Assembly: GCA_965243025.1 (NCBI GenBank) | Contig: CBDETY010000003.1 | Location: 6,176,001 to 6,240,000, forward strand | DNA length: 64,000 nt | Direction: 5' to 3' | Source of the DNA: Candidatus Latescibacterota bacterium | Lineage (GTDB): Bacteria > Latescibacterota > UBA2968 > UBA8231 | Part shown: in pieces, positions 1 to 24,751 of the stretch | Position numbering within the stretch: position 1 is the first letter of the stretch | How the letters are laid out: every line of letters starts with the position of its first letter | The notes under the pieces: generated by a model | What the model was told of the DNA's origin: nothing | What the model saw: only the letters and a program-made list of their open reading frames with translations | Database searches by the model: none | Program-made: the position numbers and the translations under genes

Positions 1-648
1 CAGCCGGACGGGCCGCCATGGAGCGAGGGACTATTCCGGCCTGCGACTCCCGACAGCTTGTTCATGCGGGACAGTTCGGTTCACACCGGGTTCATCGATA
101 CCCGTTTCGGAGGTATTGGAGGGCTGAACTTCGACAACGCCCTGCTCTGGATTCGCAACAGTCAAGCCGAGATTCCCGGTTTCGAAGAAGGGGATCCCCT
201 TGTGCAGCCTGAGGACGTGCGCTCCAAGATCGCCTTGGTCAACAAGGCCGATTACACCCGGCGCCTCGGCAGTTGGGAACTGATCGGCAAGTTCAAGCAC
301 CGCTTGCGGCATGAGAGCCTCGAAACGGAAGAAGGTGCGCGCGTGAACCAGTCGGAATTCATCCCGATCGCGACGGCGGAGTATTCGCTCACCGCAGGCA
401 CGCAGTTTCTGTTCGGTGCTCAAGGTATTCCATTTGTCCCTTACAAGATGTGGAATCGCGCCGACGAGAACGGGTCGTTTACGCAGACCGACTACCTCGC
501 GATGGTAAAAATAACCGCCGAATACTTCGGAATCAGCGGCAACAACCTTTTCATGGGATACCAGCGAACCAATCGCAAATTCGACAAGTTCAGCGACCGC
601 GATTTCAAATCCACCACCCTTTTCGTCGAACTCGTCTCTCCATTCTAG
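1..648 (+). CDS. C-terminal part of a large putative outer-membrane beta-barrel protein (5'-truncated by window edge); paralog of 4738-7650
   Basis: Frame 1 is open from base 1. Aligns by eye to the C-terminus of 4738-7650 (MRDS/MRNS, LNF.N.L.W.RNSQ, VNKADY, FKH, QG.PF). Amphipathic strands, terminal Phe. Confidence 0.75.
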   Translation, partial: QPDGPPWSEGLFRPATPDSLFMRDSSVHTGFIDTRFGGIGGLNFDNALLWIRNSQAEIPGFEEGDPLVQPEDVRSKIALVNKADYTRRLGSWELIGKFKHRLRHESLETEEGARVNQSEFIPIATAEYSLTAGTQFLFGAQGIPFVPYKMWNRADENGSFTQTDYLAMVKITAEYFGISGNNLFMGYQRTNRKFDKFSDRDFKSTTLFVELVSPF

Positions 649-664
649 GTCCTACGGTTTCATC

Positions 665-1414
665 ATGCGGATAACACAGATTCTCCTTTTCACGGTTGGC
701 CTGGGAACGCTGATCGTTGCGGGGTGCACCCCGATCGGCAAACTGGAATACCTGGTCGACGCCAGGCCGATTCTCAGTCCTTCCGACGGTGATTACCATA
801 TCGACCCGATCGACAGTTCGGTGGTGTGGACCCAGGAAGGAATCTCCGTCAAGGTAAAGTTCTACAACGATCAGATGCTCGACGCGGTGTACGATCCCAG
901 GACGAGCCCGTACACCCTGACCCCGTGGATCCATCCGGAGCACGGCTACACCCCGCCGCTCTGGACGGTTTTCGACATCACCGTAATCAACCAGACCCGG
1001 GACCGCGTCGAGCTCGATCCCACCAACGCGGTAATTCTGCTCGACAACGGCCGCCGCTTCTTCTGCCGCCAGGGGGTGGGTGTCTGGTACGACCCGACCG
1101 AGTACTACGACTATTCCTACGTGAAGTGGGGAGGGCGGGACGGCGTGACCCACTACCATGCCTCTTTTGACCGCAACGATGTCTGGGGAAAATCGGAATA
1201 CAGGCGGGAGAAGCCTGTAAGGAAGGGACGGACGTACAACGGAAAATTGACGTTTCCTCCACTACCGCCCGAAACAAAGAGCTTCACCCTGCGCATAGAC
1301 CAGTTTATCCTGGCCTTCGACAAGTTCGCGGTCGGATGGGGAAATCCGGTCGAGTTTACGGATATGGCCTTTCGCTTCGATGTCAGCCAGGGCGTACGTG
1401 AAATCGTCGAGTGA
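665..1414 (+). CDS. Putative lipoprotein, unknown function; paralog of 12644-13414
   Basis: Lipobox LIVAG-C; shared blocks DSS.V...EG..VKV, GY.PP..TVF..TV.N.T...VE.DP..AV.L.D.G. Confidence 0.75.
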   Translation: MRITQILLFTVGLGTLIVAGCTPIGKLEYLVDARPILSPSDGDYHIDPIDSSVVWTQEGISVKVKFYNDQMLDAVYDPRTSPYTLTPWIHPEHGYTPPLWTVFDITVINQTRDRVELDPTNAVILLDNGRRFFCRQGVGVWYDPTEYYDYSYVKWGGRDGVTHYHASFDRNDVWGKSEYRREKPVRKGRTYNGKLTFPPLPPETKSFTLRIDQFILAFDKFAVGWGNPVEFTDMAFRFDVSQGVREIVE

Positions 1415-1440
1415 GGTTAGGAGTTCGAGAGGGAATTGAG

Positions 1441-2106
1441 ATGCATTTGAGAGTTGTTGCTCCGACATGCCTTGTTGCGCTCGTTGCGTTGTCCTGCGGG
1501 TCTTTGAAGTACGAGCTTCTGAAGGATACATCCCTTCCCAACCCGCCATCCAAGCCGGTAAAGATCTACATCACCGGTTTTCCGGTCACCAGCAAGGCGA
1601 ACATCGTCGACCCCAAGGCGGCAGTGGGCTCGGGCCCCGGCGGATATTCGGGGGGCAACGCTGCAGCTGCGACGAACGAGTTGGCCTCGGTGGGAAACTA
1701 CCTTGCAGTCATATCCCGTCCGACCCGCATTGAGGATCTGTCGGGAGCGATCTTGCGCGAGTTGCGCAAATCCGACGTAAGGGTATTCACCGATCTCGAA
1801 ATGATCTCGGGAATGGACGCTGTAAGGACGATCGGCAATCCCTTCGAACTGGTAGCCGGTTCCGAGGAAGCGGACCTGGAGATCGAGGGCAACGTATTGC
1901 TGATGAGCGAGAGGGTTTCGAAGAAGTTTTCACAGAATACCACGAGTGTGGAAGTGCAGATCACCGTCCGCGACGTTTCTACCGACGCAGTCAGTGGCAA
2001 GAAGCCGCTGAGGGCGGGCATTCAGATGGTGTTCAACTCGCGTGAGCTCGAGGAAGCCATGGCTGTTGCGGCGATCACGGGCATGACCCAAAAAATCCTT
2101 TTTTGA
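1441..2106 (+). CDS. Putative lipoprotein (possible CsgG/LpoB/TolB-N-like alpha/beta fold)
   Basis: ATG at 1441 after GAGGG; lipobox VALS-C; fold guess from ADLEIEGNV...VEVQITVRDVST is weak. Confidence 0.6.
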   Translation: MHLRVVAPTCLVALVALSCGSLKYELLKDTSLPNPPSKPVKIYITGFPVTSKANIVDPKAAVGSGPGGYSGGNAAAATNELASVGNYLAVISRPTRIEDLSGAILRELRKSDVRVFTDLEMISGMDAVRTIGNPFELVAGSEEADLEIEGNVLLMSERVSKKFSQNTTSVEVQITVRDVSTDAVSGKKPLRAGIQMVFNSRELEEAMAVAAITGMTQKILF

Positions 2107-3761
2107 TCTGGGTTGGGGCATGGCTCATGGCGGCATGGCTGGGCAGCGGTTCCGCGGATGCGGACCTGCTTACGTGGATAGCGGATGACGCTGGGGATTT
2201 TTCTGGTGCGCAAAGCGATGGGGCCCGGATTCACCCTGACAGCCTGGTGATCCTCGCAGCCGTCAAGGATGAGACGAACTTGGCGTTTGGCCAGATTGCA
2301 GTCGACGAATATGACAAAACGGTTCCGTTGACCGATGGCGACACCTCGCTCAGCAGCGAATGGATTTCAGGTACCCCCAATGTCTTCGGGCGTTTTTTCA
2401 CCGTGGATCTGGGAGTCGACAGGGCCATTACCCGGGTGAAGACAAGGGCAGGAGCCACGGCGTTGAGTCAACCGGAATATTTCGTTCGCGGTTACCGCAT
2501 TGAGGCGGCCCGGGCGGCCACTCCGCAGATATGGCACTCGCTGGCGGAGGAAAGGGACAACAGAATCCTGAATTTCGATACGGAAGAGGATTCGACCTGG
2601 GCCGTTTTTGACGTAGATGGATCCCCCGCTCCCGTCATTGGTCGTTTCGTCCGGCTGACGGTGATCCGGCAGGACCGCAGCAACTGGATCACCCTGGGAG
2701 AGATCGAAGTTTTCGGCACCGGCTACACCAGCAGGGGGTGGTTGGAAGACGTGCTGACGAGCGACTCCGAAGTCAATGTCGGCCGGGTTCGATGGCGAGG
2801 GGGGACCCCTGAAAGCACCGCAATGGACCTCCGTTTCGGCCTCGCGGATGATTCATTGACAGGTGCAGTCCCGGCTCAGGCCCGGGAGACCCTGTTCCAG
2901 GGTTCGGAACCGACCCCGGCTGTTCGCTACCGCGTGGACCTGAGCAGTACGTCGCCGTTTTCCACTCCATCCCTGAGCCGTATCGAAGTGGAGTACGACC
3001 CCGTGCTCGTCGCGCGCCGGGTTTCCGGACGTGCGGAACCTGCGGTCGTAACCAAAGGTTCGCGTTCCACTTTCACGTACACGGTTGATCTTGAAATCCA
3101 GGACGGAGACCGGGGAGCGGATTGGCTGCTGATCGAAGGCGTCACTCTCGATATCGCTGAAGTGCGCGTGGACGGCCGCTCGCTGGACCGGGATTTGTCG
3201 CTGGAGTCGGGGTTCAGGTGGAACCTCACCGGGGACAAGGAAGGAAGTATCGTCGAGTTCGCACCATCGGAACGGCTTTCACGGGCATCGACAGTCGAAA
3301 TCGAGGCCACCGCCCTGTTCTTGAGAGACCAGACTACACTGAAGGTTGCGGCCGCAAGCCGGGAACAGGCAGACCGCGATGGCTACGTAAACTGGCAGAA
3401 CGGCGGGGAGAGCCCATTCGGGACATGGACCGTCGAGGCAACCGGAGCACCGCCGAAGCTGGTCGGGAAGGTCGAAGTTACGCCGGAGCCGTTTTCTCCG
3501 TACGCGGAAGGTGTCGCCAGTTTCAGGTTTGTCATCGGCAACATCAGGGAGTCGGCCGACGTCGTAGTCGAGCTTTTCACCCTGGACGGCCGCCGGGTGA
3601 AAAGACTGGTCGAACACGGACGCTCGCGGGAATACGAAATCGAGTGGGACGGGCGCGACAGCGACGGCCGCATTCTCCAACCCGGTTTGTACCTGTACCA
3701 AGTGAGGGTTGCCGGGGTTGCCGGCGGAGCCCGCCGGGGAACGATTGCCCTGGCGTACTGA
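2103..3761 (+). CDS. Secreted protein with discoidin (F5/8 type C)-like domain and C-terminal FlgD-Ig / T9SS-CTD-like domain
   Basis: Signal peptide; FTVDLG...ITRV...GYRIE...GRFVRL...LGEIEVFG; C-terminal PFSP...FTLDGRRVKRL...WDGRD..G..LQPGLYLYQV. Overlaps the upstream stop. Confidence 0.75.
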   Translation: MIWVGAWLMAAWLGSGSADADLLTWIADDAGDFSGAQSDGARIHPDSLVILAAVKDETNLAFGQIAVDEYDKTVPLTDGDTSLSSEWISGTPNVFGRFFTVDLGVDRAITRVKTRAGATALSQPEYFVRGYRIEAARAATPQIWHSLAEERDNRILNFDTEEDSTWAVFDVDGSPAPVIGRFVRLTVIRQDRSNWITLGEIEVFGTGYTSRGWLEDVLTSDSEVNVGRVRWRGGTPESTAMDLRFGLADDSLTGAVPAQARETLFQGSEPTPAVRYRVDLSSTSPFSTPSLSRIEVEYDPVLVARRVSGRAEPAVVTKGSRSTFTYTVDLEIQDGDRGADWLLIEGVTLDIAEVRVDGRSLDRDLSLESGFRWNLTGDKEGSIVEFAPSERLSRASTVEIEATALFLRDQTTLKVAAASREQADRDGYVNWQNGGESPFGTWTVEATGAPPKLVGKVEVTPEPFSPYAEGVASFRFVIGNIRESADVVVELFTLDGRRVKRLVEHGRSREYEIEWDGRDSDGRILQPGLYLYQVRVAGVAGGARRGTIALAY

Positions 3762-3770
3762 TGGGTCGAT

Positions 3771-4670
3771 GTGCCCGACCGATACTCGATTCTGTCCTGG
3801 AGTGGGGTAATATGTGCAGCAGTGCTGACATGTTCGTCGCCGATTCACTCCGCTTTCGAGCTCACCGGAACGGGAGCGAGGGCTTCTGCCCTGGGAGGGG
3901 CCCAGACTGCGGCGACAGGTACAGCCGACGGAATCTGGTTCAATCCCGCCTCCAACGCCCTGCGGGAAACCTGGCAGATCGGGACTGCGCACGCCCTTCT
4001 GTACCCCGGTCTGGACAAACCTCCGACTCTACACGGGCTGACGGCGGCCATACCGCTTTCGGGGCGGCTGGGCAAGAACAGGGTTCAGGTCGGGATGTCT
4101 TTCCTGAGCGCCAGGAACTGGGACGAGCAGGTGACCGCTCTGGGACTCAGCCGTCCACTCCACCCGCGCATGGCGGTCGGGCTGGCACTGCGGTCGAGTG
4201 CCTGGAGTACGGTGGGTCTGTCGCACCGCGCCTGGGATATGAACGTCGGCGCCACCTACGAAGTCGGGTGGGTTCATCCCGAAGCATATCTGCGCCTCGC
4301 AGGGGTGATGGAAAACCTCCGCGGTTCCAATCGGTCCTCTTCCGGGAAGAAGGCGGGACGTTCGCAGCGAAAGTTCACGGTCGGCGCCAGTCTCGAGTTG
4401 CAGGGGTCTGTTTTCTACCTCGACTGGGAGAACGTGGACGACCGGTTCGAGACGCGTTTCGGGCTGGACTCGGGCAGTGGGCCGGGCGGCGACCTTCGTA
4501 TTCGGGCCGGAGCCAGTGCGGTTTCCTTTCCCTGGGCAGGAAAGGAAGTAACCGCCGGCCTGGGCCATCGGAGTGGACGTTGGAACTACGACTATGCGTA
4601 CGCCTATCCCCTCGAAGCAACGGGTCTTGGGGGGATTCATCGCTTCAGCCTGGCCTACGAGGCGGATTGA
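3771..4670 (+). CDS. PorV/PorQ (FadL-like) family outer-membrane protein
   Basis: Signature GARASALGGA.TA....A.GIWFNPA after a signal peptide; C-terminal DYAY......LGGIHRFSL.Y. Confidence 0.75.
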   Translation: MPDRYSILSWSGVICAAVLTCSSPIHSAFELTGTGARASALGGAQTAATGTADGIWFNPASNALRETWQIGTAHALLYPGLDKPPTLHGLTAAIPLSGRLGKNRVQVGMSFLSARNWDEQVTALGLSRPLHPRMAVGLALRSSAWSTVGLSHRAWDMNVGATYEVGWVHPEAYLRLAGVMENLRGSNRSSSGKKAGRSQRKFTVGASLELQGSVFYLDWENVDDRFETRFGLDSGSGPGGDLRIRAGASAVSFPWAGKEVTAGLGHRSGRWNYDYAYAYPLEATGLGGIHRFSLAYEAD

Positions 4671-4737
4671 AACAGGAAAGCCGATGCCCTTGCGGTTCGC
4701 ACCGGCATCACACAGCCGATACGATGAGGATTCTGAC

Positions 4738-7650
4738 ATGATATTTTCGAGATCACACCTGGGCCTGCCGGCGATCATCGCGCTGCTTGCTGCGGCAATC
4801 ATCTCGTCCGACGCCGATGCCCAGACCCACCTGCGGAATCGGGCGTTCCTGAACCTTGGAGCCACGGAAGGTTACCTGAACTACGGCCGCAAGGAATACG
4901 ATCCCTATCCGGCGGTAATCAACGCCCGAAACCGGTACGACCGCCTCGGAAACTTTCTGTCCCGCGGTTACAAGGTGTTCACCTGGGAGTTCGAGCGTCC
5001 CGGCTTCAGCGAGATTACCACGCGAACCGCCCAGTACCTCGGGTGGTTCAACAACATGCTGATTCTCTCGGACTCGTACCGGGGCTGGGATTACCGGGTT
5101 ACCATGGGCGAGGACATTCGCACCAAGCTCACCGACCTCACCTACTCGAACCCGCGTTACTTCGGCATACAGTTCGACGGCGCCTCATCGGACAACAAGT
5201 TCACCCTGATGCTCAGCCAGGGCGACGACCTGCTGAATATCCCGAAGTTCTCTCATTTCTCGTCGACAAAGGAACAGTCGTCCGTCCTCGTCTTCGGAGC
5301 CCACTGGGAAACGAGGCTCGGCAGCATGCTTCGCCTCGGGACCACCTACTTCAACCAGCATATGGCGAACGTGACCGCCGCGGACGGTTCCTTCATCAAG
5401 GGCGACACTCCGTACAACATGCTCCCTCCGAACTTCATCGACGTAATTATCGAAGATGATTCACCGGACGAGCCCGGAATAACAGCAACGGTATACGACG
5501 TGAACATTGTAGTGCGGGGCTCTCGCCAGGGAGAGCCGATCGCGATGAGCTGCTGCGGACCCGAAGCGAATCCCGAAATCAGCCGTACGGTAAACGGCGG
5601 AATCACCGTGGCCGACGATGGTCTCCAGGTGGGCGGCCACGGCGACCGGGTCATCTACACATTCCAGCTTCCCGCCTATGATCTCGCCCCTCCGGACCAG
5701 TTCGCAGCAGACGCGGAGTCCGTGCTGCCCGGCCTGACGATCGAGTCAGTGCGGTTTTCAGCGGACGTCGCCGGAGACTACCGGATCTCGGTGCGGCAAA
5801 GGCATCTCTTCTTCGATGAAGGAGTGTACAACAAGAACATCGAGAAGGAGTACCTTCCCGGGAACGACAGGTACGTAAACCCTTACACCGGTTTGCAGGG
5901 GGAGGATGCGTCGAAGACGGTTCAGGAGCTGCTCGACGAGGGAGTGGACGTGTTCAGGAAGTGGCCTGTCGAACCCGACCCCACAATCGCAGCCGTGAAC
6001 CCTTTCATGCAGTACGCATGGGACCTGGAGGATCCCACCTCCATCTCCTACACCGTGCTGCGGTCGGATGGCAAAAACGACGGTGTCGACAATCGCAAAG
6101 TCGTGTCCTTCAACTACGGTATTCCGACGGGACAGGGGTTGTACGGCGCAGACTTCGACCTCACCTTCAAGAATACCAAGATCAAGGGAGAGATCGTAAC
6201 CAACCCGCAGTACTTCATCTTTCCTGTCGGCGTCAACGGCGGCAAAAGGGACGCCAAACGGCGCTGGGCCTATTTCATCAATGCCCAGCGAAAGCTCGGC
6301 TCCGTCGAGTTGGGCGGTGAGTTTTTCCGATTGGATCCCGACTACAGCGGCAACTACGACAGCCGTCGGGGCGGCATCCCCTTCTTCACGGACAAGTGCA
6401 TCACCTGTCCCCAGATGCAGGAGATGAACGTCATGACCGACAACGACGACAACGACCAGTGGCCGGACGAGTTCAACAACGAAAAGCCGAGCGCCGAGAA
6501 GTCCGACTCGGGTGTGTTCCCCGGCCTGGACGAAAACCAGGATCTGGTCCCGGACAGCGACCAGAACTTCAACGGCATCCCCGACTGGACCGAGCCGATC
6601 CTGTTCTACGACGCGGACCCGCCCGAATTCGTCTACGGCATTGACTTCAACAACAACGGGTATGTCGATTTCCGGGAGAATGACGCCTATCCGGACTATC
6701 CGTACCGCCGCGACCGCCGCGGTTGGCACGCGGTGGCGACCAAGGACGGCCTCGGACGCTGGGGCAAGTGGATATCCCTGGGATACTACAGCATGGAGGA
6801 GGAAGCCGGAGGCGGCGAGGCGTCGGCGGTCTACGGCCGCTACCACCACCGTTTCATCTCTCCTTACTTCGGGCGGCTCGAGATCAACGACGACCTCAAG
6901 TTCGTCAAGGACGACATCCCGGACGACGTCTACATATGGGAGGATGTCGGTTTCAACGAGAGAGTTGCCAGCCCGTATCCCCACCTGACCGGGAAGAACA
7001 TCGAACTTCGCGATCTCAATACCCAGTTGCTGCCGCCGGACAAGGATCCGCTGGCGATGCGCAACAGTATGGTCAACACCCTGTTCATCGAATCCGAACT
7101 CAAGGTCGTGTCGGCGCTGAACTTCGTGAACAACCTCCAGTGGGTGCGCAACAGCCAGAGAGAGGATGAATTCGGCGGCGGCCTTTTGCAGTCGGAGAGC
7201 CTCGAATCTACCATCACCATGGTCAACAAGGCCGACTACGACATTCCACTGGGGAATCTCAAAATCAAGCCGATGTTCAAGCATCTGCTGCTGTGGAAAA
7301 ATTCGCAGCGCCAGGAAGACCAGACCGGAGACGGCCGCCTGGCCTCGATCTCGAAGTGGTCGCCGATCATGCGCATCCGGTACGAGTTGACGAACAAGAC
7401 GAACCTGCAGCTCGGATTCCAGGGCTTTCCATTCTTCCGCTACCACGAAACCAACCGGGTCGACGATCTGCGAACTTTCAGGGAGTGGACGCTGGTCCTG
7501 ATGATGAGCAACCGCTCCGACCACTACGGCTACGCGATCTCGACCCAGTTCGGCCTGATAAAGACCGATCGCGTGTACGAAGAAGAGGTCAAACAGGGCG
7601 ACAACTTCAACTCGTCGAAGATGTTCTTCGATGTCGTGGCGGGGTTTTAG
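4738..7650 (+). CDS. Large exported / outer-membrane protein (~970 aa) with acidic Ca-binding-like repeats
   Basis: ATG 4738 after GAGGA; signal peptide ending ADA; DxDxN-type motifs (DNDDNDQWPD, GLDENQDLVPD, DQNFNGIPD, DFNNNGYVD); ends FFDVVAGF. Confidence 0.75.
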   Translation: MIFSRSHLGLPAIIALLAAAIISSDADAQTHLRNRAFLNLGATEGYLNYGRKEYDPYPAVINARNRYDRLGNFLSRGYKVFTWEFERPGFSEITTRTAQYLGWFNNMLILSDSYRGWDYRVTMGEDIRTKLTDLTYSNPRYFGIQFDGASSDNKFTLMLSQGDDLLNIPKFSHFSSTKEQSSVLVFGAHWETRLGSMLRLGTTYFNQHMANVTAADGSFIKGDTPYNMLPPNFIDVIIEDDSPDEPGITATVYDVNIVVRGSRQGEPIAMSCCGPEANPEISRTVNGGITVADDGLQVGGHGDRVIYTFQLPAYDLAPPDQFAADAESVLPGLTIESVRFSADVAGDYRISVRQRHLFFDEGVYNKNIEKEYLPGNDRYVNPYTGLQGEDASKTVQELLDEGVDVFRKWPVEPDPTIAAVNPFMQYAWDLEDPTSISYTVLRSDGKNDGVDNRKVVSFNYGIPTGQGLYGADFDLTFKNTKIKGEIVTNPQYFIFPVGVNGGKRDAKRRWAYFINAQRKLGSVELGGEFFRLDPDYSGNYDSRRGGIPFFTDKCITCPQMQEMNVMTDNDDNDQWPDEFNNEKPSAEKSDSGVFPGLDENQDLVPDSDQNFNGIPDWTEPILFYDADPPEFVYGIDFNNNGYVDFRENDAYPDYPYRRDRRGWHAVATKDGLGRWGKWISLGYYSMEEEAGGGEASAVYGRYHHRFISPYFGRLEINDDLKFVKDDIPDDVYIWEDVGFNERVASPYPHLTGKNIELRDLNTQLLPPDKDPLAMRNSMVNTLFIESELKVVSALNFVNNLQWVRNSQREDEFGGGLLQSESLESTITMVNKADYDIPLGNLKIKPMFKHLLLWKNSQRQEDQTGDGRLASISKWSPIMRIRYELTNKTNLQLGFQGFPFFRYHETNRVDDLRTFREWTLVLMMSNRSDHYGYAISTQFGLIKTDRVYEEEVKQGDNFNSSKMFFDVVAGF

Positions 7651-7714
7651 TCCGGAAGGACACTTGGCGCAGGAAACGAACGGAAGGAAATCTAAAGGGT
7701 AAAGGCAGCCGGAC

Positions 7715-10700
7715 ATGCTATTTGGACTCCTCATCGTCGCTGCTCTCGGTACGACCGTCACCCTGAGCAACCGATTCTTCTCGCCCGCCGAGCTGCAGGA
7801 CAGTTTCGAGAAGGGCCAGAAACTCTACGCTCTGGGTGATTTCGAGAAGGCGATAAAACGCTACATGTCGGTCCTGGAAACCGAGAGCAACGCCACGATC
7901 GACGTCGAACAAGTGGATGTAACCGTCGGCGAGTTCATCCTCCCGGTACGGGTGGCGGCGACCTACCAGCTCGCCAACACGTACAACAAACTCGGTCTGG
8001 AGAAGCTGCAGCGATCCAAGTTCCTTGAAACCGAAGGCAAGGAAGCGGAGTCGAGGCAGCGCTACGGGGAAGCTCGCGACGACCTGGGAAAAAGCCTGGA
8101 GTACTTCGACCGCCTTTTGACCGACCCGAATGTCGAAGAGCGTACCCGGGTGATGGCACAGTACCAGATCCTCGAGACAAACTACGAACTCGAGGATTTC
8201 GACCAGGTCATCATCGAGGCGAACAACCTGATCGAAAACTTCCCCAACAGCCTCTATGAAACCGCCGCCTACTACGATCTGGGATGGGCAAACTACGAGC
8301 AGGCGAATTACCGCGAGGCGATCGAAAACTTCGAGGAGGTCCTCACCCTGGCCCCGAGAGGCTCCCGCTCGGACCGCGCCCTTTTCCAGATCGCCGAATC
8401 GTACGGCAGCCTCGAAGATCACGACCGCGCCCTGATCTATCTCGACCGTCTGATCGACCGCTACGACTTCGACGCGATGACCGAAGAAGAGCTGATCGAG
8501 ATGACCACCCTGAAGATAAAGGGTCTGGTCGAGGAGACGGCGCGTGAGCTGGTTGCCAAGGCGCAGCTGAAAAAGGGGGATATCTTCGCGGGCAGGGGAA
8601 TGGTCGACGAAGCCCTTTCCGCATATGAAGTCGTACCCGAGCGCTACTCCGCCGAGTCAGTCCTCGTCGAGAATTCCCATTACAAGGTGGCGGAGCTGAT
8701 TCACGAAACCCGTGGTCTCGATGCCGCGATCTCATCCTACAAGTCGGCGATAACCAGCGTCGAGTCGCGGCGTTTCCAGGCGAAAACCCAGCTCACCGTG
8801 GCGAGGCTTCTGTTCGACGCAGGTCGCTACGAACAGGCTGCGGAGGAATACCGGGTCTACCTGAGTGCATACCCCGACCAGGCGGCGCGTCTGGGCTTCC
8901 AGGAAGACAAGGTGCTTCTGCGGCTGGCGAACTGTTTTCAGTTCGATGGTCAGGACAGGAAGGCGGAGGACCCGGCCGGTTCGTCCAGTTCACTCGATCA
9001 GGCGGCGTCGTACTACCGCCGTCTGCTGGAGGAATTCCCCGACAGCCCGTTGGTTCAGGACGCGGTGTTCGGACTTGGTTTCACCCACCAGCTGCAGGGC
9101 GACAATGAAGGGGCGCGACAGAATTTCGATCAGCTGGCAGTGAGACATCCAGACCACCCGGCCGCTCCCAACGCGTTGCTGCAGCTCGCCAGAATCGCGT
9201 ATGAACTCGAGGACATGGACGAAGCCAGAAGCAAGTATCTCGCCTTCCTCGAACGGTACGGTTCCTCCGACCTGGTAAACAGCGTTCACATGGAGCTCGG
9301 ACTGACATACGAACGAATCGGCGACTACCCGGCAGCTATCGCCTCTTTCAACAACATCGAGGAGAGCTGGGAGCAGTGGTCGAAGGTCCAGGTCAAGGCA
9401 GCCGAGCTCCACATGGCCAGGCAGGAGTACGACGCGGCGGAAGCGGTTCTCGCCAAGGCGATGGCTCGCGTCGAGGATCCGCACCTCAGCAGTCAACTGC
9501 ACTACATGGCGGGACGGATCAACTTCGTTCAGGGAGAGTACGTCGAGGCGATCGAAGAGCTCAGAAAAACCCTGGAGCTTTCTGCTTCTGACGACATAAT
9601 CGAAAGCGCCCTGCTCGCCAGGGGAAGCGCCCACTACGAGCTCGCCAAGGCCCGCGACGCCGCCAGCCGGACGCTTCCTGCCCGGGCTTCCTACGAGGCC
9701 TCCCTGGAGGACATGCAAGCGCTGCTCGAGCGCGACCCCGATCCCTACATCAAGGACAGTGCCTACCGCACTCTCGGGGCGAGCATGATCAGCCTCGGAA
9801 GGGTGGGAGAAGCGGCCCAGTACTACGATCAGCTCATTGCAGCTACCGCCGACGTGCAGGAGCAGGCGACCTTCCGCATGCTGCTCACCGAGCTGTTGTT
9901 CGAGAACCAGGATTTCCAACGCGCCAAGGACAATGCCCAGGGACTCCTCGACCTCGATTTTCAGGACGACAACGAGGCCGGCTACTATCGAAAAGAGCGC
10001 GCTTACTCGATCATCGGCAACGCCCTTCTTCAGGAAGGCCGGTACAAGGAAGCAAGTGGGGTATTCGCCGAGGGACTGCGTAAATACCCAAACTCCGGAG
10101 AGAGCGCAAACATGGCCTTTTCCGGGGCCTTTGCCCAATTCAGCGGGCAGGAATACCAGGCCGCGGCAAAGAGGTTCAAACGCTATGTCGATCGTTTTCC
10201 GAACGACCGCAACGCTGTGCACGGCCGCTACTACCTGGCCCACAGCTACCAGGCGCTGACCCGGTTCGAGCAGGCCGCAAAGGAGTTTTCCGCACTCGTC
10301 GACAAGTTTCCCGGATCGCTGTACGAGGAAGAAGCCCTCTACCTCATCGGCGAGAACTATTACAACGAACAGGATTTCGCCAATGCGGCGAAGGCCTACC
10401 TCGTCCTTTTGAAACGCTACTTCGGGGAATACAGCGACGAAGCACAGTACGCGCTGGCATGGGCGTACTTCGAGCAGGAGGAGATGGAGGAGGGGGTGTT
10501 GGCGATGGAGGAACTGGTCCGCCGGTTCCCCGATAGTGAATACGCCTCGAAAGCGCAATTCACGATTGGCGATTTCTACTACAACGTGCGCAACTACGAC
10601 CGGGCCCGCGACGCCTACACCCTTCTCGTGGAAAACTACTCCGAGTCGGAAGAGGCGGTGCGTGCCGAACGCCTCATCGGCGAACTCAGCGAGATCCAGG

Positions 10701-10981
10701 CGAGCCTCGAATACAAAGAGGTAATGAAGCTGTTCGAGGCCAAACAGTATGCGGAGGCCGTCGAGGGTTTCAGGACCATCATCAGTAAATACCCGGGGAC
10801 CTACACCGAGTTGGCCGCCTACTGCAACATGGGGCTCTCGTTCGAAATCATGAGAGAATGGTCGAAAGCGGTGGAAAACTACAACACGCTCCTGGAAAAA
10901 GGTGGAGAAGAAGCCCAGAACGCCGATGTGGTCAGCTTCGCAAAGCTGCATCGCGACTGGATCGTTGAAAACAGATTATAG
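7715..10981 (+). CDS. Membrane-anchored multi-TPR protein (BamD/CpoB-type repeats)
   Basis: N-terminal hydrophobic segment; many repeats such as FP.S....A.Y.LG..Y.....Y..A...F. Confidence 0.9.
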   Translation: MLFGLLIVAALGTTVTLSNRFFSPAELQDSFEKGQKLYALGDFEKAIKRYMSVLETESNATIDVEQVDVTVGEFILPVRVAATYQLANTYNKLGLEKLQRSKFLETEGKEAESRQRYGEARDDLGKSLEYFDRLLTDPNVEERTRVMAQYQILETNYELEDFDQVIIEANNLIENFPNSLYETAAYYDLGWANYEQANYREAIENFEEVLTLAPRGSRSDRALFQIAESYGSLEDHDRALIYLDRLIDRYDFDAMTEEELIEMTTLKIKGLVEETARELVAKAQLKKGDIFAGRGMVDEALSAYEVVPERYSAESVLVENSHYKVAELIHETRGLDAAISSYKSAITSVESRRFQAKTQLTVARLLFDAGRYEQAAEEYRVYLSAYPDQAARLGFQEDKVLLRLANCFQFDGQDRKAEDPAGSSSSLDQAASYYRRLLEEFPDSPLVQDAVFGLGFTHQLQGDNEGARQNFDQLAVRHPDHPAAPNALLQLARIAYELEDMDEARSKYLAFLERYGSSDLVNSVHMELGLTYERIGDYPAAIASFNNIEESWEQWSKVQVKAAELHMARQEYDAAEAVLAKAMARVEDPHLSSQLHYMAGRINFVQGEYVEAIEELRKTLELSASDDIIESALLARGSAHYELAKARDAASRTLPARASYEASLEDMQALLERDPDPYIKDSAYRTLGASMISLGRVGEAAQYYDQLIAATADVQEQATFRMLLTELLFENQDFQRAKDNAQGLLDLDFQDDNEAGYYRKERAYSIIGNALLQEGRYKEASGVFAEGLRKYPNSGESANMAFSGAFAQFSGQEYQAAAKRFKRYVDRFPNDRNAVHGRYYLAHSYQALTRFEQAAKEFSALVDKFPGSLYEEEALYLIGENYYNEQDFANAAKAYLVLLKRYFGEYSDEAQYALAWAYFEQEEMEEGVLAMEELVRRFPDSEYASKAQFTIGDFYYNVRNYDRARDAYTLLVENYSESEEAVRAERLIGELSEIQASLEYKEVMKLFEAKQYAEAVEGFRTIISKYPGTYTELAAYCNMGLSFEIMREWSKAVENYNTLLEKGGEEAQNADVVSFAKLHRDWIVENRL

Positions 10982-11041
10982 CCAACTGGGAAGTCGGCAG
11001 ATAACGACAGGCGCAAGCCTGCTACTAAGCGGAGGGATCCA

Positions 11042-11713
11042 ATGTCGCAGAATTTCTTAGTCGATTCGTTTGTCAAAGGCGGCCCGATGATGTGGCCGCT
11101 GTTGCTGTGCTCGCTCATTGCCCTGGGCGTGATCATCGACAGGTTTCTCAATCTCTTCAGAGTTCCGAGTGAAGAAGAGGCGGAGGCGGAGCTCAACGCC
11201 GCCGAGCAGGTGGTGCAAAGTGAGGGGGAACAGGCCGCTGTGGAGCATTTCAGACAGGGGAGCGGGGTTCTCAATTACGTGTTCGCAGCCGTGCTGAAGC
11301 GCTTCGACACTTTGATTCTCGAGAACCGCACCGATGTCGAGGACATGCGGCAGGAGCTGATTCTGGTGACCGAAGAGGCTGGCGTCGACTACCTTGGCCG
11401 TCTTTTGAACGCCCTGGCCACGATCGGGGTACTCGCACCCCTGATGGGACTTCTGGGTACGATCACGGGAATGATCCGGGCTTTCGACGCGATCGCGCGC
11501 GCCGGGGCCGGAGATCCGGCCGCGGTGGCCAGCGGCATTTCCGAAGCCCTGATCACCACGGCGTCCGGATTGATCGTCGCCATCCCCACCATTGTCTTTC
11601 ACCGCTTCCTTTCATCCCGCGCCGACAAGGTGTTCAAACAGGTCGAGCTTTATTGCCACGCTTTCGCCAATACCCTTCTGGTACGGCACACGTCCCAATC
11701 CAGACAGGCATGA
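11042..11713 (+). CDS. exbB: MotA/TolQ/ExbB proton channel subunit
   Basis: GGPMMWPL; APLMGLLGTITGMIRAF; GISEALITTASGLIVAIP. Confidence 0.95.
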   Translation: MSQNFLVDSFVKGGPMMWPLLLCSLIALGVIIDRFLNLFRVPSEEEAEAELNAAEQVVQSEGEQAAVEHFRQGSGVLNYVFAAVLKRFDTLILENRTDVEDMRQELILVTEEAGVDYLGRLLNALATIGVLAPLMGLLGTITGMIRAFDAIARAGAGDPAAVASGISEALITTASGLIVAIPTIVFHRFLSSRADKVFKQVELYCHAFANTLLVRHTSQSRQA

Positions 11714-11740
11714 ATCCGGGAGTCATGAGGAGGCTGCAGA

Positions 11741-12160
11741 ATGGCGAAAAAACGCCTCAGTCATAAGGAATCCCGCTTTGCAGGGGAGACGAATCCCGAC
11801 TTGACCCCCCTGATCAACTGCATGTTCCTGCTGCTGGTCTTTTTCATGGTGGCGACCACCTTCGTAAACCCCAAGGGCCTGAGCGTCGATCTGCCTGGCG
11901 GCCAGGGAGAAGAATCCCGGGCAACCAAGGACATGAACATCGTCATCGAGCAGGACGGAACGCTGACGGTCAATGGCCAATCGACGGCGAAAAACGAACT
12001 GGCGGCACGCATCAAGGAGATCATGGCGGTAGAGAACACCAAGAATGTCATCCTCGAGGCGGCTCGCTCCACAAGCCACGGTGATGTCGTCAAGGTTGTC
12101 GATATCGCCCGCGGGCAGGGGATCGAAGCGGTGGCTTTTGCCAAGGCTTCAGAAGGCTAA
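11741..12160 (+). CDS. exbD: ExbD/TolR family protein, variant with Asn at the conserved Asp
   Basis: DLTPLINCMFLLLVFFMVATTF; periplasmic VDLP...HGDVVKVVD. Confidence 0.9.
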   Translation: MAKKRLSHKESRFAGETNPDLTPLINCMFLLLVFFMVATTFVNPKGLSVDLPGGQGEESRATKDMNIVIEQDGTLTVNGQSTAKNELAARIKEIMAVENTKNVILEAARSTSHGDVVKVVDIARGQGIEAVAFAKASEG

Positions 12161-12181
12161 AGAAACGGAGGGGTTTACCGC

Positions 12182-12610
12182 ATGGCTGGTAGACGGTCCC
12201 TGGCGGAAGAGGCCGGAAAGGTCGAACTCAATCTCACGTCCCTGATAGATGCGGTGTTCCTGCTGCTGATTTTCTTCATGGTGACGACGGTATTCGTCAA
12301 GTCGACAGCCTTGAGAATCGAGTTGCCCGACGCGGTCAACTACGACCAGATCGAACAGGAGAAGAAACTGAATCTGCGCATCTCCTCGGAAGGAAAGCTG
12401 GAGATGAACAGCAGGCTCGTCGGCATGGGAGAGCTCGGCACGTGGATTCGACAGGAGAAGTTTCGCACCGGCTCGACAACCCTCATCATAACCGCCGACG
12501 ACAAGACTCCTCATGGGTACGTCATCGACGCAATGGAAGCTGCCGTTGGTGCCGGTGTCGAGAAAATCGATCTTGAAACAGAGGAACCCGGAAAGAGCAA
12601 GGCCGGGTAA
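12182..12610 (+). CDS. exbD: ExbD/TolR family protein, canonical Asp
   Basis: NLTSLIDAVFLLLIFFMVTT; ADDKTPHGYVIDAM...AGV. Confidence 0.93.
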   Translation: MAGRRSLAEEAGKVELNLTSLIDAVFLLLIFFMVTTVFVKSTALRIELPDAVNYDQIEQEKKLNLRISSEGKLEMNSRLVGMGELGTWIRQEKFRTGSTTLIITADDKTPHGYVIDAMEAAVGAGVEKIDLETEEPGKSKAG

Positions 12611-12643
12611 TTCGAACCAGAAACCAGGCAGGCTGCAAGGACC

Positions 12644-13414
12644 ATGACTCGAACCGCGATTAGTGGACTGGCACTGGCGGCGCTATTCGGGTGCGCCGGA
12701 CTGATCCCGAAGGACCTGAAATACACCGTCCATATGGAACCGGTGCTTCCCGAAGGCAGGCGCGACTATTTCGTGGATGTCGAAGACAGCTCCTTCGTCT
12801 TCAGCAAGGAGGGGGTGCTCGTCAAAGTCAGGCACATGACCGACGACGAGCTGGATCGCCGCTTCCCGCCGCTGTTCGACGGCCGGCACGTCAACCCCTA
12901 CACGCACAACATGAAAGACCCGGAGACCGGCTACATTCCCCCGCGGTTCACCGTTTTCGAAGTCACCGTCGTCAACCTTACGTACGCGAAGGTCGAGTTC
13001 GATCCCGCCAAGGCGGTGCTGTTGACCGACACCGGTGAAGAGCACAAGTACTACGATCCGGGACGGCAGGGAGCCGGCCCGCTCGGTGGAAACACCTTTG
13101 CGAAATACTACAAGACCGAGCTCGGGATATCCGGAAACGAAAAGGAAATCGCGTTGGAGCGCATGGGAATCGTCTACAAGACGATATACCACCGCGAACG
13201 CCCGGTCTTCAAGGGAGATCAACGGTCCGGAATGCTCGTCTTCGATCCTTTGCGCAAGGAGAACAAGGAGATCGCCCTCTCCATCTCGGACTTCGTGCTG
13301 TCTTTCGATGCGAGTGGCAATCCCGAAAGCACCGTCGACATCAGGTACGTACTGGAAGTTGACCAGGGCGTTGTGGAGCTCTCCGCGAAACAGACCGCCA
13401 TGGCTGGTGGTTAG
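12644..13414 (+). CDS. Putative lipoprotein; paralog of 665-1414
   Basis: Lipobox LFG-C; full-length similarity to 665-1414 including the terminal DV.QGV.E. Confidence 0.75.
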   Translation: MTRTAISGLALAALFGCAGLIPKDLKYTVHMEPVLPEGRRDYFVDVEDSSFVFSKEGVLVKVRHMTDDELDRRFPPLFDGRHVNPYTHNMKDPETGYIPPRFTVFEVTVVNLTYAKVEFDPAKAVLLTDTGEEHKYYDPGRQGAGPLGGNTFAKYYKTELGISGNEKEIALERMGIVYKTIYHRERPVFKGDQRSGMLVFDPLRKENKEIALSISDFVLSFDASGNPESTVDIRYVLEVDQGVVELSAKQTAMAGG

Positions 13415-13492
13415 ACTCGAACATCCCTGAGTTTACCCATCGGCAAGCCAACCACCTTCAGGAGCTGGAACGGGATTCCAGCTCCTGATTCT

Positions 13493-15175
13493 TTGTCGGC
13501 ACTGACGAGGACGGCGGTGACCTCCTTGTTTTTCGCCTGTTCGCAGCCCCAGGATCCATCCATTCTGGCAATTGTCGCCCAATCCCCCATCACCGTTGCC
13601 GATCTGCGCGCCCTCGAACCGGACGACCCGCCGCGGGTGGATGCCGGGGAACGGTTCGAGCGTCTCCGGGAGGATTTACAGACCCTCGTCGACAGGGAAC
13701 TGCTGCTGATCGCCTCCCGGGACCAGGGTCTCGATACCGGGGAGGTGGTTGTCAGCAGGCTGGAACGCAGCGAGGAGGTGCGGCTTGCCCGTACCGCGAT
13801 GGCCGTGGCGGCTGGCGAACGCATCTCCGTTACCAGCGCGGAAATTGCGGAAGTGTACGAAGCGGGGTGGAATGAACGCCTGGAAGCTCTCGAAATATTC
13901 GTCCCGGCCGAGGCGGAAGCCGACCGGGCGGTGCAACGGCTGGAAGCCGGCGGGAGTTTTGCGGATGTAGCGGCTGAATTCGCCGTCGACCCGGTAGTCA
14001 GGGTCCCGTCCGGCGGACCCCGGAAAGCGGCTTACCTGCCATTCCAATCACCGAGAGCGTTGGTCGAAATCCTGTTCGAACTCCAACCGGGCCAAAGGAC
14101 TCCACCGATAGCAGTCGCCGGAGGGTATGTGGTGGCCAAGGTTACGGCCCGCGATACGCTTGCCCTTGAAGAGTTGGAGAACCCCTTGAGGAAGCAGTTG
14201 GAAAAGGAGAAAGCGCAGGTATTCAGAGCCCGATACCTGCGACGTCTCCGCAAGGAGATCTCCCTGCAGGAGGATTCGACGGGATTGCGCGTTGCCGTCG
14301 AGGTCCTGCGGAATGGCACGCCTGTGTCCGACCTCAACCGGGAACAGCTGGATCACCCTGTCTACAGGTCGAGCGATTTTGTTGTCGATGTCGAGGAAGC
14401 CGTGGAGGCTCTGCGCGCAAGCCGTCGTACCTGGAAATCATCGGCGACCCGGCCCGCCGTGATCCAGGCGATTCGGGATCAGATACTGACGGCACGGGTG
14501 CTGGCATGGGATGGAAGGCGCCTGGGTGCCGATCGGACAGAGGAATTCCAGGCATGGCGGAACCGGGAGCTGGAAAAACAGATGATCACCCGGCTTCGGG
14601 AGCGGCTGTTGGCTGATTCCGTCGCGGTCGCCGAGGAGGACATCCAGGCCCACTACGAAACGACGAAACACAGGTTCCGGATTCCCGCCGCGGCGCTCGT
14701 TGCCGAAATACTGGTCGTTGAACCGGATCTCGCCCATCGCCTGCGCAAACGCCTGGAGGAAGGAGAGGACATCGAGGGGCTGGCATCCCGTTTCACGATA
14801 CGAGGGGCCGACCGTATCGAGGGGGCCCGGACGAGGTTCTGGGTCTACGACCTTCAGACTCCCATTTACAGCGAGGAGTGGATGAGAGCCGTCTTCAGCA
14901 CACCACTGCATCGGGTGACAGGGCCGCTGCTCACCAAGGGAGGATACTCGGTCTTTCAGGTACTCGATCGCCGCGGTGAGGAGTATCACCCGCTCGAGCT
15001 GCCGCGGGTCCGCGAGGGGGTGACCCGCGAAGTGCGGGAAATGGAGGGGCGCCGGGTTTTCAACCAGTATGTGAAACGGTTGCGCCGCCAGTACTCATCC
15101 TCGGTGGCGGTTTACGAGGACAATCTCAGGGCCTTCGGGGGCGGCCCCGACAACGCTCTCGCTTCCTCACCCTGA
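13493..15175 (+). CDS. SurA/PrsA-like chaperone with two degenerate parvulin (PpiC) domains; start uncertain
   Basis: Possible lipobox FFA-C; L..LVDRELL..A....GLD; two A......LE.G..F..A..F and T.P.....GY.V..V units. Confidence 0.75.
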   Translation: MSALTRTAVTSLFFACSQPQDPSILAIVAQSPITVADLRALEPDDPPRVDAGERFERLREDLQTLVDRELLLIASRDQGLDTGEVVVSRLERSEEVRLARTAMAVAAGERISVTSAEIAEVYEAGWNERLEALEIFVPAEAEADRAVQRLEAGGSFADVAAEFAVDPVVRVPSGGPRKAAYLPFQSPRALVEILFELQPGQRTPPIAVAGGYVVAKVTARDTLALEELENPLRKQLEKEKAQVFRARYLRRLRKEISLQEDSTGLRVAVEVLRNGTPVSDLNREQLDHPVYRSSDFVVDVEEAVEALRASRRTWKSSATRPAVIQAIRDQILTARVLAWDGRRLGADRTEEFQAWRNRELEKQMITRLRERLLADSVAVAEEDIQAHYETTKHRFRIPAAALVAEILVVEPDLAHRLRKRLEEGEDIEGLASRFTIRGADRIEGARTRFWVYDLQTPIYSEEWMRAVFSTPLHRVTGPLLTKGGYSVFQVLDRRGEEYHPLELPRVREGVTREVREMEGRRVFNQYVKRLRRQYSSSVAVYEDNLRAFGGGPDNALASSP

Positions 15176-15191: not shown

Positions 15192-17174
15192 ATGGCACGC
15201 GAAGCCCCGGAACGCTTCGACATCGTTCCCGAAGACGCACCGTTCGAGCCCGGGTTCAACCTCAAGACCCTGCTGGCGGCCCTTTTCGTCGGGTTCGTGA
15301 TGCTCCCGGGGGCCATTTACCTGGGGCTGGTAACCGGTCAGAGCACCGCAGGCGGCGCCGAATGGGTCACCCTGATCCTGTTCATCGAGATCACCAAACG
15401 CTCGTTCGTCAGACTGCGAACCCAAGAGATCATAATAATCTACTGGGTTGCCAGCGGACTGGTGATGATGGGAGGCAAGCTCGGAACCAGCGCCGAGCTG
15501 TTCGGCGGTCCTTTCGGCGTGCTGATCTGGGACCAGTACCTGATCCAGTCGCCGCAGGCGGACGGCCTGGCGGAATACATACCGGACTGGGTGGTTCCCC
15601 CGCGGGGATCCCGCGCCCTGCTCGAGCGCACCTTCCTCGACGGCGCCTGGATCAAACCCGTCATAGTACTCATCCTCGCCGTGGTATTGCAGCGCGTCAA
15701 CGCCTTGTCCCTCGGTTACGTGCTTTTTCGCGTGACCGGGGATGTCGAAAAGCTGCCGTTTCCCATGGCCCGCGTTCAGGCCGGGGGCGCCACCGCCCTG
15801 GCTGAAACCTCCGCGAAACAGGAGAGCTGGCGCTGGCACGTGTTCAGTACGGGCACATTCATCGGGGCTTCGTGGGGGGTTCTGTACGTCGTGGTGCCCA
15901 CTTTGTCGGGAGTATTCCTGACCGAAACCGTCTCGATCCTTCCAATCCCGTTCTTCGACTTCACGGTTACGATGAAGGCGGTCCTCCCGGCGACGGTAAT
16001 CGGCATGGCCACCGATCTCGTTCATTTCCTGATTGGCCTGGTCCTGCCCTTCTGGGTCGTGGTGGGGGCATTCTCGTCGTCCATCCTGATCAACCTGGTG
16101 GCCAATCCGATCTTGTACAGCGCCGGGGTGCTCCACACCTGGTCGCCCGGAATGTCGGCCCTGCCGACGATGATTTCGAATCTCTTCGACTTCTGGTTGA
16201 GCTTCTCGATCGGCGGAGCGATCGTGGTCGCCCTCACCGGGTTCTGGTTGGCAGGCAAGGCGATCGGCGCCGGGGGGTTGAGCGGTGCTGCCGCTTTCCG
16301 TTCCTCGACCCCGGAGGGCCGCGGCGACATGCGCATACTCAAGGCGCTGCTCATCTGGGCGGTGACCACTGCCGCCTTCGTCGTCATGGTATACGTGCTG
16401 GTTCCGGACTTTCCCGTCTGGATGACGGCATTCTTCGGGTTTGTCTGGACCCCCATCTACTCGTACATCGGGGCGCGCATGATCGGCATTACGGGCAGCC
16501 CCCAGGGGGTGACTTTTCCCTACCTGCGCGAGGGGAGCTTTTACATGTCCGGGTACCAGGGGGCGTCGATATGGTTCGCTCCGGTGCCGATCTTCCAGTG
16601 GGGCTACGAAGTCCAGGCCTTCAAGCAGCTCGACATGACCCGCACCACCTTCGGCAGCTTCGTCAAGATGACCGCGCTGGCGCTGCTGATCATGATATTC
16701 TGCAGTTTCCTGTTCTGGTCCTGGATCTGGGCCCTCGGAGAGATCCCTTCCTCCGCGTTTCCGTATGTGCAGAAGTTCTGGCCCTTCCACGCGACGATGC
16801 AGTCGTTCTGGGCCAAGTCGACGCTTCCCGGGGCGGAGGGGAGTCTGATCACCGAGATCATCCGCTGGGACTACATCGCCATCGGCGCTGCCTTCAGCGC
16901 CCTGTTCTACGCCGCGGTCAATGTTCTGAACGGCCCTGTAGGGCTATTTTACGGCTTCGTCGGGGGTTTGGGGCAGTGGCCCCATTTCGTCATCCCGAAC
17001 TTCATCGGCGCAATGGTCGGCAAATTCTATCTGCGCCGGAGATTCGGGGACCAGAGGTGGCAGGCCTACGCCCCCATCCTGCTCGCCGGGTATTCGTGCG
17101 GCGTCGGACTTATCGGCATGACGTCCATCGCCATTGCGCTGATTTCGAAAGCGGTCTCGCACGTCTCCTTCTGA
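15192..17174 (+). CDS. OPT-like polytopic membrane protein ('peptide transporter')
   Basis: Many TM helices; motif DVEKLPFPMA matches the OPT-family E.L.FP motif. Confidence 0.7.
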   Translation: MAREAPERFDIVPEDAPFEPGFNLKTLLAALFVGFVMLPGAIYLGLVTGQSTAGGAEWVTLILFIEITKRSFVRLRTQEIIIIYWVASGLVMMGGKLGTSAELFGGPFGVLIWDQYLIQSPQADGLAEYIPDWVVPPRGSRALLERTFLDGAWIKPVIVLILAVVLQRVNALSLGYVLFRVTGDVEKLPFPMARVQAGGATALAETSAKQESWRWHVFSTGTFIGASWGVLYVVVPTLSGVFLTETVSILPIPFFDFTVTMKAVLPATVIGMATDLVHFLIGLVLPFWVVVGAFSSSILINLVANPILYSAGVLHTWSPGMSALPTMISNLFDFWLSFSIGGAIVVALTGFWLAGKAIGAGGLSGAAAFRSSTPEGRGDMRILKALLIWAVTTAAFVVMVYVLVPDFPVWMTAFFGFVWTPIYSYIGARMIGITGSPQGVTFPYLREGSFYMSGYQGASIWFAPVPIFQWGYEVQAFKQLDMTRTTFGSFVKMTALALLIMIFCSFLFWSWIWALGEIPSSAFPYVQKFWPFHATMQSFWAKSTLPGAEGSLITEIIRWDYIAIGAAFSALFYAAVNVLNGPVGLFYGFVGGLGQWPHFVIPNFIGAMVGKFYLRRRFGDQRWQAYAPILLAGYSCGVGLIGMTSIAIALISKAVSHVSF

Positions 17175-24719: not shown

Positions 24720-24751
24720 GGATTCCCCGGGTGGACCGGGCAAAACTGTCT

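Follow-up and report, generated by a model that had tools for sequence, protein, structure and literature searches.

The window analyzed here is a 64,000-nucleotide stretch of the genome of an uncultured Candidatus Latescibacterota bacterium (positions 6,176,001-6,240,000 of contig CBDETY010000003.1, assembly GCA_965243025.1), and its first lines contain the 3' end of one gene and the whole of a second that encode two large outer-membrane proteins, referred to here as barrels A and B. Both are very probably giant, plug-less outer-membrane beta-barrels of a new family, of which they are conserved, non-equivalent members; that they are giant barrels other than TonB-dependent receptors is well supported. 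Genes of this so far undescribed family recur mostly beside genes that encode secreted surface proteins with a C-terminal domain (CTD) of the kind that a type IX secretion system (T9SS) uses, a pairing that suggests some unrecognized mechanism by which material is displayed or imported at the surface of the cell. We favor, tentatively and with somewhat less than even confidence, the reading that the giant barrels are dedicated partner barrels for T9SS-displayed binding proteins, forming ordered hetero-assemblies whose lumen might serve as a conduit. Nucleotide positions refer to the window unless a G000 genome coordinate or a locus handle (L070, L071, L075) is given.

Barrel A enters the window with its C-terminal 215 amino acids (1..648, + strand); retrieval of the full upstream gene (G000:C3:6173700-6176648), which starts 2,301 nucleotides (nt) before the window, gave a protein of 982 amino acids with a signal peptide. 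Barrel B (4738..7650, + strand) has 970 amino acids, with a signal peptide at residues 1 to 28 that ends in SSDADA and a giant beta-barrel from about residue 105 to residue 970, and the mature barrels are about 940 amino acids long. The likely start codon of barrel B is the ATG at 4738, which has an AGGA 9 to 12 nt upstream and the predicted signal peptide directly after it; the GTG at 4573 (open reading frame [ORF] 4573-7650) is a less likely start. The two proteins are clearly paralogs, as the initial annotation had proposed from the sequence: their C-terminal ends share 70 of 209 residues (33% identity; E 1e-29), and the full-length proteins are 41% identical over B residues 408 to 970 and 34% identical over B residues 31 to 357.

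The features pointed out in that annotation are all present in the sequence and turn out to differ in how widely they are shared. Both barrels end in Phe, and the C-terminal strand of B (7612..7647, + strand), with its alternating hydrophobic residues and final Phe, resembles a beta-signal; the terminal Phe is no family trait, because it occurs in only 3 of the 41 paralogs of the genome, most of which end in YAGLE or FAGLR. The large insertion in B corresponds to residues 314 to 332 and 358 to 416 (5677-5733 and 5809-5985, + strand), two lineage-specific segments that are partly helical in the structural model, common to B and its ortholog P0004 (59% identity) and absent from the other 11 rows of alignment A2. 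The CITC pair (residues 554 to 557; 6397..6408, + strand) lies in a low-confidence loop and is peculiar to barrel B; it is missing even from P0004. The family as a whole is nearly free of cysteine, with 30 of the 41 paralogs lacking any Cys across the last 900 amino acids.

A single-sequence AlphaFold2 run on barrel B reached a pLDDT of 29.7; the model was rebuilt using an 83-member family alignment and showed one giant beta-barrel (pLDDT 82.6, pTM 0.83), in whose secondary-structure string long strands span residues 107 to 969. Strand count, sidedness, and the state of the lumen were read from the DSSP string, with strands paired backwards from the C terminus. In this pairing, the turns of 2 to 9 residues all fall on one side, and the long connections, including the acidic module at 533 to 659 and the insertion at 212 to 453, all fall on the opposite side, which is the usual layout of outer-membrane proteins. 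The string is consistent with roughly 24 to 28 membrane strands, 24 when residues 233 to 355 are taken as an inserted beta-sandwich or 28 when they are counted with the wall. Foldseek placed three Deinococcus SlpA entries first (E ~1e-9), followed by MtrB, LptD, PapC/FimD, and SprA. A VIA-align comparison with 48,161 chains likewise ranked SlpA first (7zgx_A; Z 13.9, 406 residues, root mean square deviation 7.7, model residues 105 to 970), with the following rows near Z 12, and the best-aligned folds were barrels of 26 to 30 strands over about 400 residues. As read here, the model appears to be neither a 22-strand barrel with a standard plug nor a protein lacking a transmembrane barrel, the two outcomes that the initial annotation had set against its own proposal.

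The fold comparison also bears on whether the barrels could be highly divergent TonB-dependent receptors with a plug that profiles fail to recognize. Their size is like that of SusC-like receptors, ExbB/ExbD-like genes lie nearby, and TonB-dependent receptors do appear among the structural matches, in the middle of the VIA-align ranking (Z 10 to 12, with about 250 residues aligned). Neither the Plug (PF07715) nor the TonB_dep_Rec model of Pfam matched A or B, and Plug was also absent from 39 homologs; the same Plug model picked out 29 ordinary receptors elsewhere in the genome, with no match to any of the 41 family members. Moreover, the first strand of B follows its signal peptide after only about 75 residues, and the folds that align best have 26 to 30 strands. 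We therefore regard a divergent receptor as extremely improbable, and the view of the initial annotation that these proteins have no recognizable plug and are not TonB-dependent receptors is upheld, the best fold match being the giant barrel SlpA rather than a 22-strand receptor. No relevant PDB match to the barrels was found by sequence or profile search, they have no SprA_N (PF14349) match (the sole match in the genome is a different, 2,063-amino-acid ORF), and PF11751 (PorP_SprF) did not match them in direct scans.

The resemblance to SlpA of Deinococcus radiodurans (PDB 7zgx, 8ae1, 8agd) goes beyond its being a giant single-chain barrel and the top match of both structural searches. The SlpA_C profile (PF21620) gave sub-threshold scores on the same hairpin in barrel B (21.1 bits) and in 8 of 39 homologs (best 30.2 bits; cutoff 35), and a six-frame scan of the genome reached E≤0.01 at only two places, both within members of the barrel family. 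SlpA also has long acidic, metal-binding insertions associated with its pore (PMC9388160). An abundant SlpA- or OmpM-like envelope scaffold or general porin, located near surface-protein genes by chance, could account for the structural match and for the recurrent weak profile matches, and SlpA, too, has metal-stabilized insertions in its pore. The family differs from SlpA in several respects, however: no S-layer homology (SLH) domain was found in the barrels by Pfam, the roughly 75 residues preceding the barrel leave no coiled-coil stalk, the SlpA_C scores are all below the cutoff, and the organisms belong to different phyla. Whereas SlpA is one abundant tether, the family comprises 41 diversified copies in position-specific clades that are tied to secretion cargo, a pattern ill-suited to a single structural protein, and we consider the scaffold explanation quite unlikely.

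The most conserved part of the family is an acidic module (B residues 568 to 656; 6439..6705, + strand), which reads DNDDND ... PGLDENQD ... DQNFNGIPDWTE ... DFNNNGYVDFREND ... YPDYPY and has no regular secondary structure in the model. The acidic motifs that the initial annotation had singled out lie here, and across the 83 aligned members the D/N/E columns are near-invariant; DNDDxD and PGxDxxxD occur in all 41 paralogs, and DxNNNxxxDxxE[ND]D occurs in 33 of them. The motifs DQNFNGIPDWTE and DFNNNGYVDFRE match the pattern of EF-hand loops of 12 residues, D-x-[DN]-x-[DN]-G-x-x-D-x-x-E. This module of about 90 amino acids is a predicted calcium-binding loop region and probably holds several calcium ions. 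Because the arrangement of turns and connections follows that of outer-membrane proteins in general, the parity of the strands would place it on the outer face, within the long loop at 533 to 659. The 30-strand barrel of SlpA offers a precedent for acidic, metal-binding loops in giant barrels, in that insertions within its pore are described as being stabilized by metal sites (PMC9388160). The earlier proposal of calcium-stabilized loops thus gains support from the EF-hand-like motifs, the near-invariant columns, and this precedent, and it stays a prediction from sequence.

No Pfam or NCBIfam model covers the barrel family (A, B, and homologs were scanned). A HMMER scan of 1.84 billion representative sequences returned 471 family clusters (50% identity) at E≤1e-3; wherever the source names one of the 71 closest clusters, the name is "hypothetical protein", and no description of the family was found in the open-access literature on outer-membrane proteins, beta-barrels, or polysaccharide utilization loci of Gemmatimonadota or on outer-membrane proteins and type IX secretion of Latescibacter*. 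The metagenome-assembled genomes with related loci are labeled Candidatus Latescibacterota, Gemmatimonadota/-etes, or Handelsmanbacteria, apart from one Zipacnadia and one Planctomycetota record, and the host bacteria are uncultured. Among the sampled genomes of the window's phylum, 44 of 81 encode family members, including all 14 from the window's own family.

Within the genome itself, phmmer identified 41 barrel-family ORFs among 20,987 ORFs of ≥100 amino acids (gene calls in this survey are simple ORFs), so that the giant barrels outnumber the TonB-dependent receptors (41 versus 29). They are organized in 29 arrays, each with one to three barrels on the same strand, and position within the array is reflected in phylogeny. 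In a quick maximum-likelihood tree of 40 of the 41 copies (midpoint rooted, with a 570-amino-acid fragment dropped and with SH-aLRT values as the only support measure), all eight first copies of two-barrel arrays fell into one clade (SH-aLRT 95), all eight second copies fell into its sister clade (99), and the two triple arrays paired position by position (99 to 100); A and B, together with two single copies, form a separate clade. Position-specific clades of this kind indicate that the modules were duplicated as units and that one barrel of a module cannot stand in for another. The initial annotation had further suggested a heteromeric or alternative channel, and the heteromeric part gains indirect support from the separation of first and second barrels into distinct clades and from the joint conservation of A and B described below. 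One barrel-cargo module contains a DDE_3 transposase gene (G000:C3:5436784-5437872; L075:3784-4872).

The genes directly upstream of the arrays link the family to type IX secretion. In 19 of the 29 arrays, a CTD gene on the same strand ends within ~200 nt upstream. The flanking proteins that were scanned are 589 to 940 amino acids long, and most have both an F5/8 type C (discoidin) domain and a FlgD_ig/CHU_C domain; they form a family of their own, to which the 552-amino-acid protein encoded ahead of barrel B (2103..3761, + strand) also belongs. With our own CTD profile, 61 of 172 matching ORFs had an array within 8 kb, compared with an expectation of 14.7. Since this profile had been seeded from neighbors of barrels, the enrichment was recounted with the independent Pfam model CHU_C, for which 50 of 97 matches had an array within the same distance and 7.4 would be expected to; a binomial P value is not strictly valid for such counts, because the genes cluster. 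The genome encodes one SprA (G000:C3:6660196-6666387; 2,063 amino acids), and this sole SprA-like gene lies downstream of a barrel pair (6649899-6655485), about 5 kb away. The PorP_SprF (PF11751), GldM, and GldL models found no match in the genome, but they were equally silent in control genomes.

A similar arrangement is known from the PorP/SprF barrels of Bacteroidota. Proteins with a type B CTD bind cognate PorP-like barrels, which hold the cargo at the surface; sprB adjoins sprF, and Flavobacterium johnsoniae is reported to have 10 PorP-like proteins (PMC9143113). As in the pairs SprB-SprF and PG1035-PorP, the giant-barrel genes adjoin genes for type-B-like CTD proteins and exist in many cargo-specific copies, in a genome that has a T9SS (SprA, a PorV-like protein, and at least 97 CHU_C domains). 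The differences are considerable: no sequence relationship of the giant barrels to PorP/SprF was seen (PF11751 was silent in the genome, as it was in the control genomes), they are about three times larger, they occur in ordered pairs and triples, and they carry the invariant acidic module; that they bind cargo is proposed by analogy. We favor the partner-barrel reading because the giant barrels occupy the PorP/SprF position beside the CTD cargo genes and because the other arrays lack a small barrel; a search with jackhmmer, using the 299-amino-acid small barrel encoded ahead of B as the query, did not find a small PorP/PorV-like barrel gene in them. Under this reading, the discoidin-domain protein would exit through SprA and would be kept at the surface by docking, probably via its type-B-like CTD, on whichever giant barrel or barrels the genes directly downstream encode. 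Two or three different giant barrels would act together, and their wide lumen, shaped or gated by calcium-stiffened loops, may pass what the surface protein captures.

The same tight cargo-barrel operons could instead indicate that each array is a private translocon or usher for its upstream protein, working beside or in place of SprA, and the modeled barrel diameter would be in the range of the protein-conducting PapC/FimD and SprA barrels, which are among the fold matches. The cargo, however, carries a T9SS signal domain, and the genome encodes SprA and a PorV-like protein, so that the T9SS already accounts for export, leaving no need for a second pore. A cargo-specific export pore is accordingly given a low probability.

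Barrels A and B are set in an operon that appears to represent the conserved core version of this module. The start of the window is occupied by one long same-strand gene array, with intergenic gaps of 9 to 78 nt or 4-nt overlaps. After barrel A follow two predicted lipoproteins of no known family, one of 249 amino acids (665..1414, + strand; lipobox-like LIVAGC, without Pfam match) and one of 231 amino acids (1411..2106, + strand; also without Pfam match), both conserved in synteny, and then the 552-amino-acid secreted protein with its F5/8 type C domain and C-terminal T9SS-type (FlgD_ig/CHU_C-like) domain. Next is a 299-amino-acid small outer-membrane barrel (3771..4670, + strand), which is PorV/PorQ/PorP-like, with all matches below curated cutoffs (NCBIfam PorV_fam, E 7e-8, 32 bits against a cutoff of 90; Pfam PorP_SprF, E 0.079), and which matches nine other ORFs of the genome in jackhmmer. 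Downstream of barrel B lie genes for a 1,088-amino-acid tetratricopeptide repeat (TPR) protein whose N terminus carries a membrane anchor or signal (7715..10981, + strand), a TolQ/ExbB-like protein (11042-11713, + strand), and two TolR/ExbD-like proteins (11741-12160 and 12182-12610, + strand). They are followed by genes for a 256-amino-acid predicted lipoprotein of no known family (12644..13414, + strand), which is a paralog of the 249-amino-acid protein, and for a 560-amino-acid parvulin-type peptidyl-prolyl isomerase (SurA/PrsA-like; 13493..15175, + strand); a similar isomerase gene is found beside another barrel pair. The 256-amino-acid protein, encoded after the ExbD-like genes, was considered as a TonB candidate and rejected as being a lipoprotein.

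This gene order is strongly conserved. In 22 related loci from 22 genomes, retrieved with an alignment of 13 close rows, the order lipoprotein, lipoprotein, F5/8 type C-CTD protein, PorV-like barrel, barrel B (57 to 64% identity), TPR protein, TolQ-like, TolR-like, TolR-like, lipoprotein, and parvulin is maintained as far as the contigs reach. The TPR gene is present in all 22 loci, the three motor genes in 19, and in one further locus the latter are cut off by the contig end. An ortholog of barrel A (49 to 56% identity), with a CBM9-like protein upstream of it, is present in all 17 loci in which it could be assessed; the other five end too early.

One TolQ-like and two TolR-like genes beside a very large exported TPR protein recall, by analogy, the Agl-Glt machinery of Myxococcus and other bacteria, whose core complex is described as containing the TolQ-like AglR, the TolR-like AglQ and AglS, the TPR proteins GltD/E/C, and the TonB-like GltG (PMC3169522). 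The likeness concerns the gene layout of the barrels' neighbors and not the barrels: the outer-membrane parts of that system as described there are small (GltA, 256 amino acids; GltB, 275 amino acids) instead of giant barrels (PMC3169522), and no GltG-like protein was identified in the operon. In the A/B version, presumably co-transcribed with the cargo-like protein, the PorV-like barrel, the lipoproteins, the giant TPR protein, and the motor, the TolQ/TolR/TolR-type motor may energize the barrel pair. A more elaborate picture, which we think rather improbable, is a modular surface machine, evolved by Latescibacterota/Gemmatimonadota-type bacteria for themselves, in which ordered hetero-oligomers of two or three calcium-gated giant barrels would be capped by T9SS-delivered binding proteins, as a counterpart of the Bacteroidota SusCD "utilisome" built from unrelated parts, with the A/B core coupled to an Agl/Glt-like TolQRR-TPR motor that would move or energize it.

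With TonB-dependent receptors of the SusC-SusD type, the giant barrels share their large size, their occurrence in cassettes with surface ligand-binding proteins, and the ExbB/ExbD-family genes beside the core pair. Alternatively, they could be nutrient-uptake channels, passive or motor driven, in which the discoidin and CBM proteins would be lids, the barrels importers, and anchoring not the main role. The flanking proteins do carry carbohydrate-binding-type domains (F5/8 type C, CBM9-like), the cassette-like expansion into many copies resembles polysaccharide utilization loci, the motor genes adjoin A and B, and genes for DUF6785 membrane proteins are mildly enriched near the arrays (9 of 50 matches within 8 kb; about 4 expected). 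Unlike SusC, however, the giant barrels have no Plug and no recognizable TonB box, they probably have more strands, and they are accompanied by T9SS cargo and not by SusD lipoproteins; the binding-protein gene comes first, the reverse of the susC-susD order. Nor were glycoside hydrolases or peptidases seen in the flanks scanned, no TonB was recognized in the operon, and the motor is missing from 2 of the 22 syntenic loci and was not seen in the scanned flanks of the other arrays. An uptake channel, the main rival of the partner-barrel reading, seems rather unlikely to us.

Returning to the partner-barrel reading, several observations weigh against it. Anchoring alone leaves the size of the barrels unexplained, because a PorP/SprF-family barrel of about 273 positions suffices in Bacteroidota. 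For eight of the 29 arrays, the gene directly upstream is not a CTD gene, and the protein encoded ahead of barrel A is CBM9-like and differs in its C-terminal tail. The two loci without motor genes (L016 and L019) have continuous sequence there, a TonB-like gene was not recognized in the operon, and a scan of 50 flanking ORFs revealed no catabolic enzymes. For B, the number of strands, the sidedness of the acidic loop, and the state of the lumen are all read from the secondary-structure string of the model. Finally, three families of the phylum have no barrels (0 of 24, 0 of 6, and 0 of 5 genomes), and the presence of SprA in 74 of the 81 genomes versus barrels in 44 marks the barrels as an accessory of some T9SS lineages and not as a core part of secretion. 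A complex prediction for residues 27 to 898 of a smaller paralog and the 99-amino-acid CTD of its upstream cargo gave no answer (score 0.00, without controls) and is evidence neither way.

The surroundings of the barrels hold some further features. Genes of about 300 amino acids near the arrays were examined as candidates for PorV-like barrels and rejected; they encode secreted CBM9-like proteins with a distinct tail, about 15 of whose 113 ORFs in the genome lie near arrays. Members are found just upstream of barrel A (G000:C3:6172396-6173358) and at L071:9309-10211 (- strand) and L070:3563-4564 (+ strand), and their conserved tail, approximately AVEExSWGRIKASL, has the look of a sorting or docking tag not described before. 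Relatives of the 249-amino-acid lipoprotein are encoded directly downstream of other, single-copy barrels (G000:C3:152274-156215, 6743174-6743992, and 1128571-1129377), and a barrel followed by a lipoprotein of this type may take the place of the two-barrel module. The G+C content of the operon is 56 to 62% (1-kb windows over positions 1-14000) versus 65.4% for the chromosome.

Beyond the parvulin gene, the window continues with a 660-amino-acid ORF of no known family (15192-17174), located between the parvulin gene and that of a 319-amino-acid FGE-sulfatase-domain protein (17176-18135, + strand), whose best NCBIfam match is PorK/GldK at 85 bits against a cutoff of 350, on par with EgtB-type matches. 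A 1,539-amino-acid protein with PA and M28-peptidase-like domains and an FtsX-type permease domain (18181-22800, + strand) and DUF4350-like and DUF4159 proteins (22818-26001) follow. The DUF6785 matches, which belong to polytopic membrane proteins that also contain DUF6784, include ORFs at 28957-31905 and 30924-32897 (both - strand).

To our knowledge, few outer-membrane barrels are giant single chains, and each of those characterized (LptD, SprA, SlpA, ushers, and MtrB) revealed a distinct envelope process. The barrels described here constitute a whole unannotated family that is tied to type IX secretion in bacteria other than Bacteroidota, and their invariant acidic module is a compact candidate calcium-binding element. 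If the barrels do anchor or serve T9SS cargo, this would explain how uncultured, environmentally widespread bacteria build their cell surface and would represent a second, independent solution to the problem solved by SusCD.

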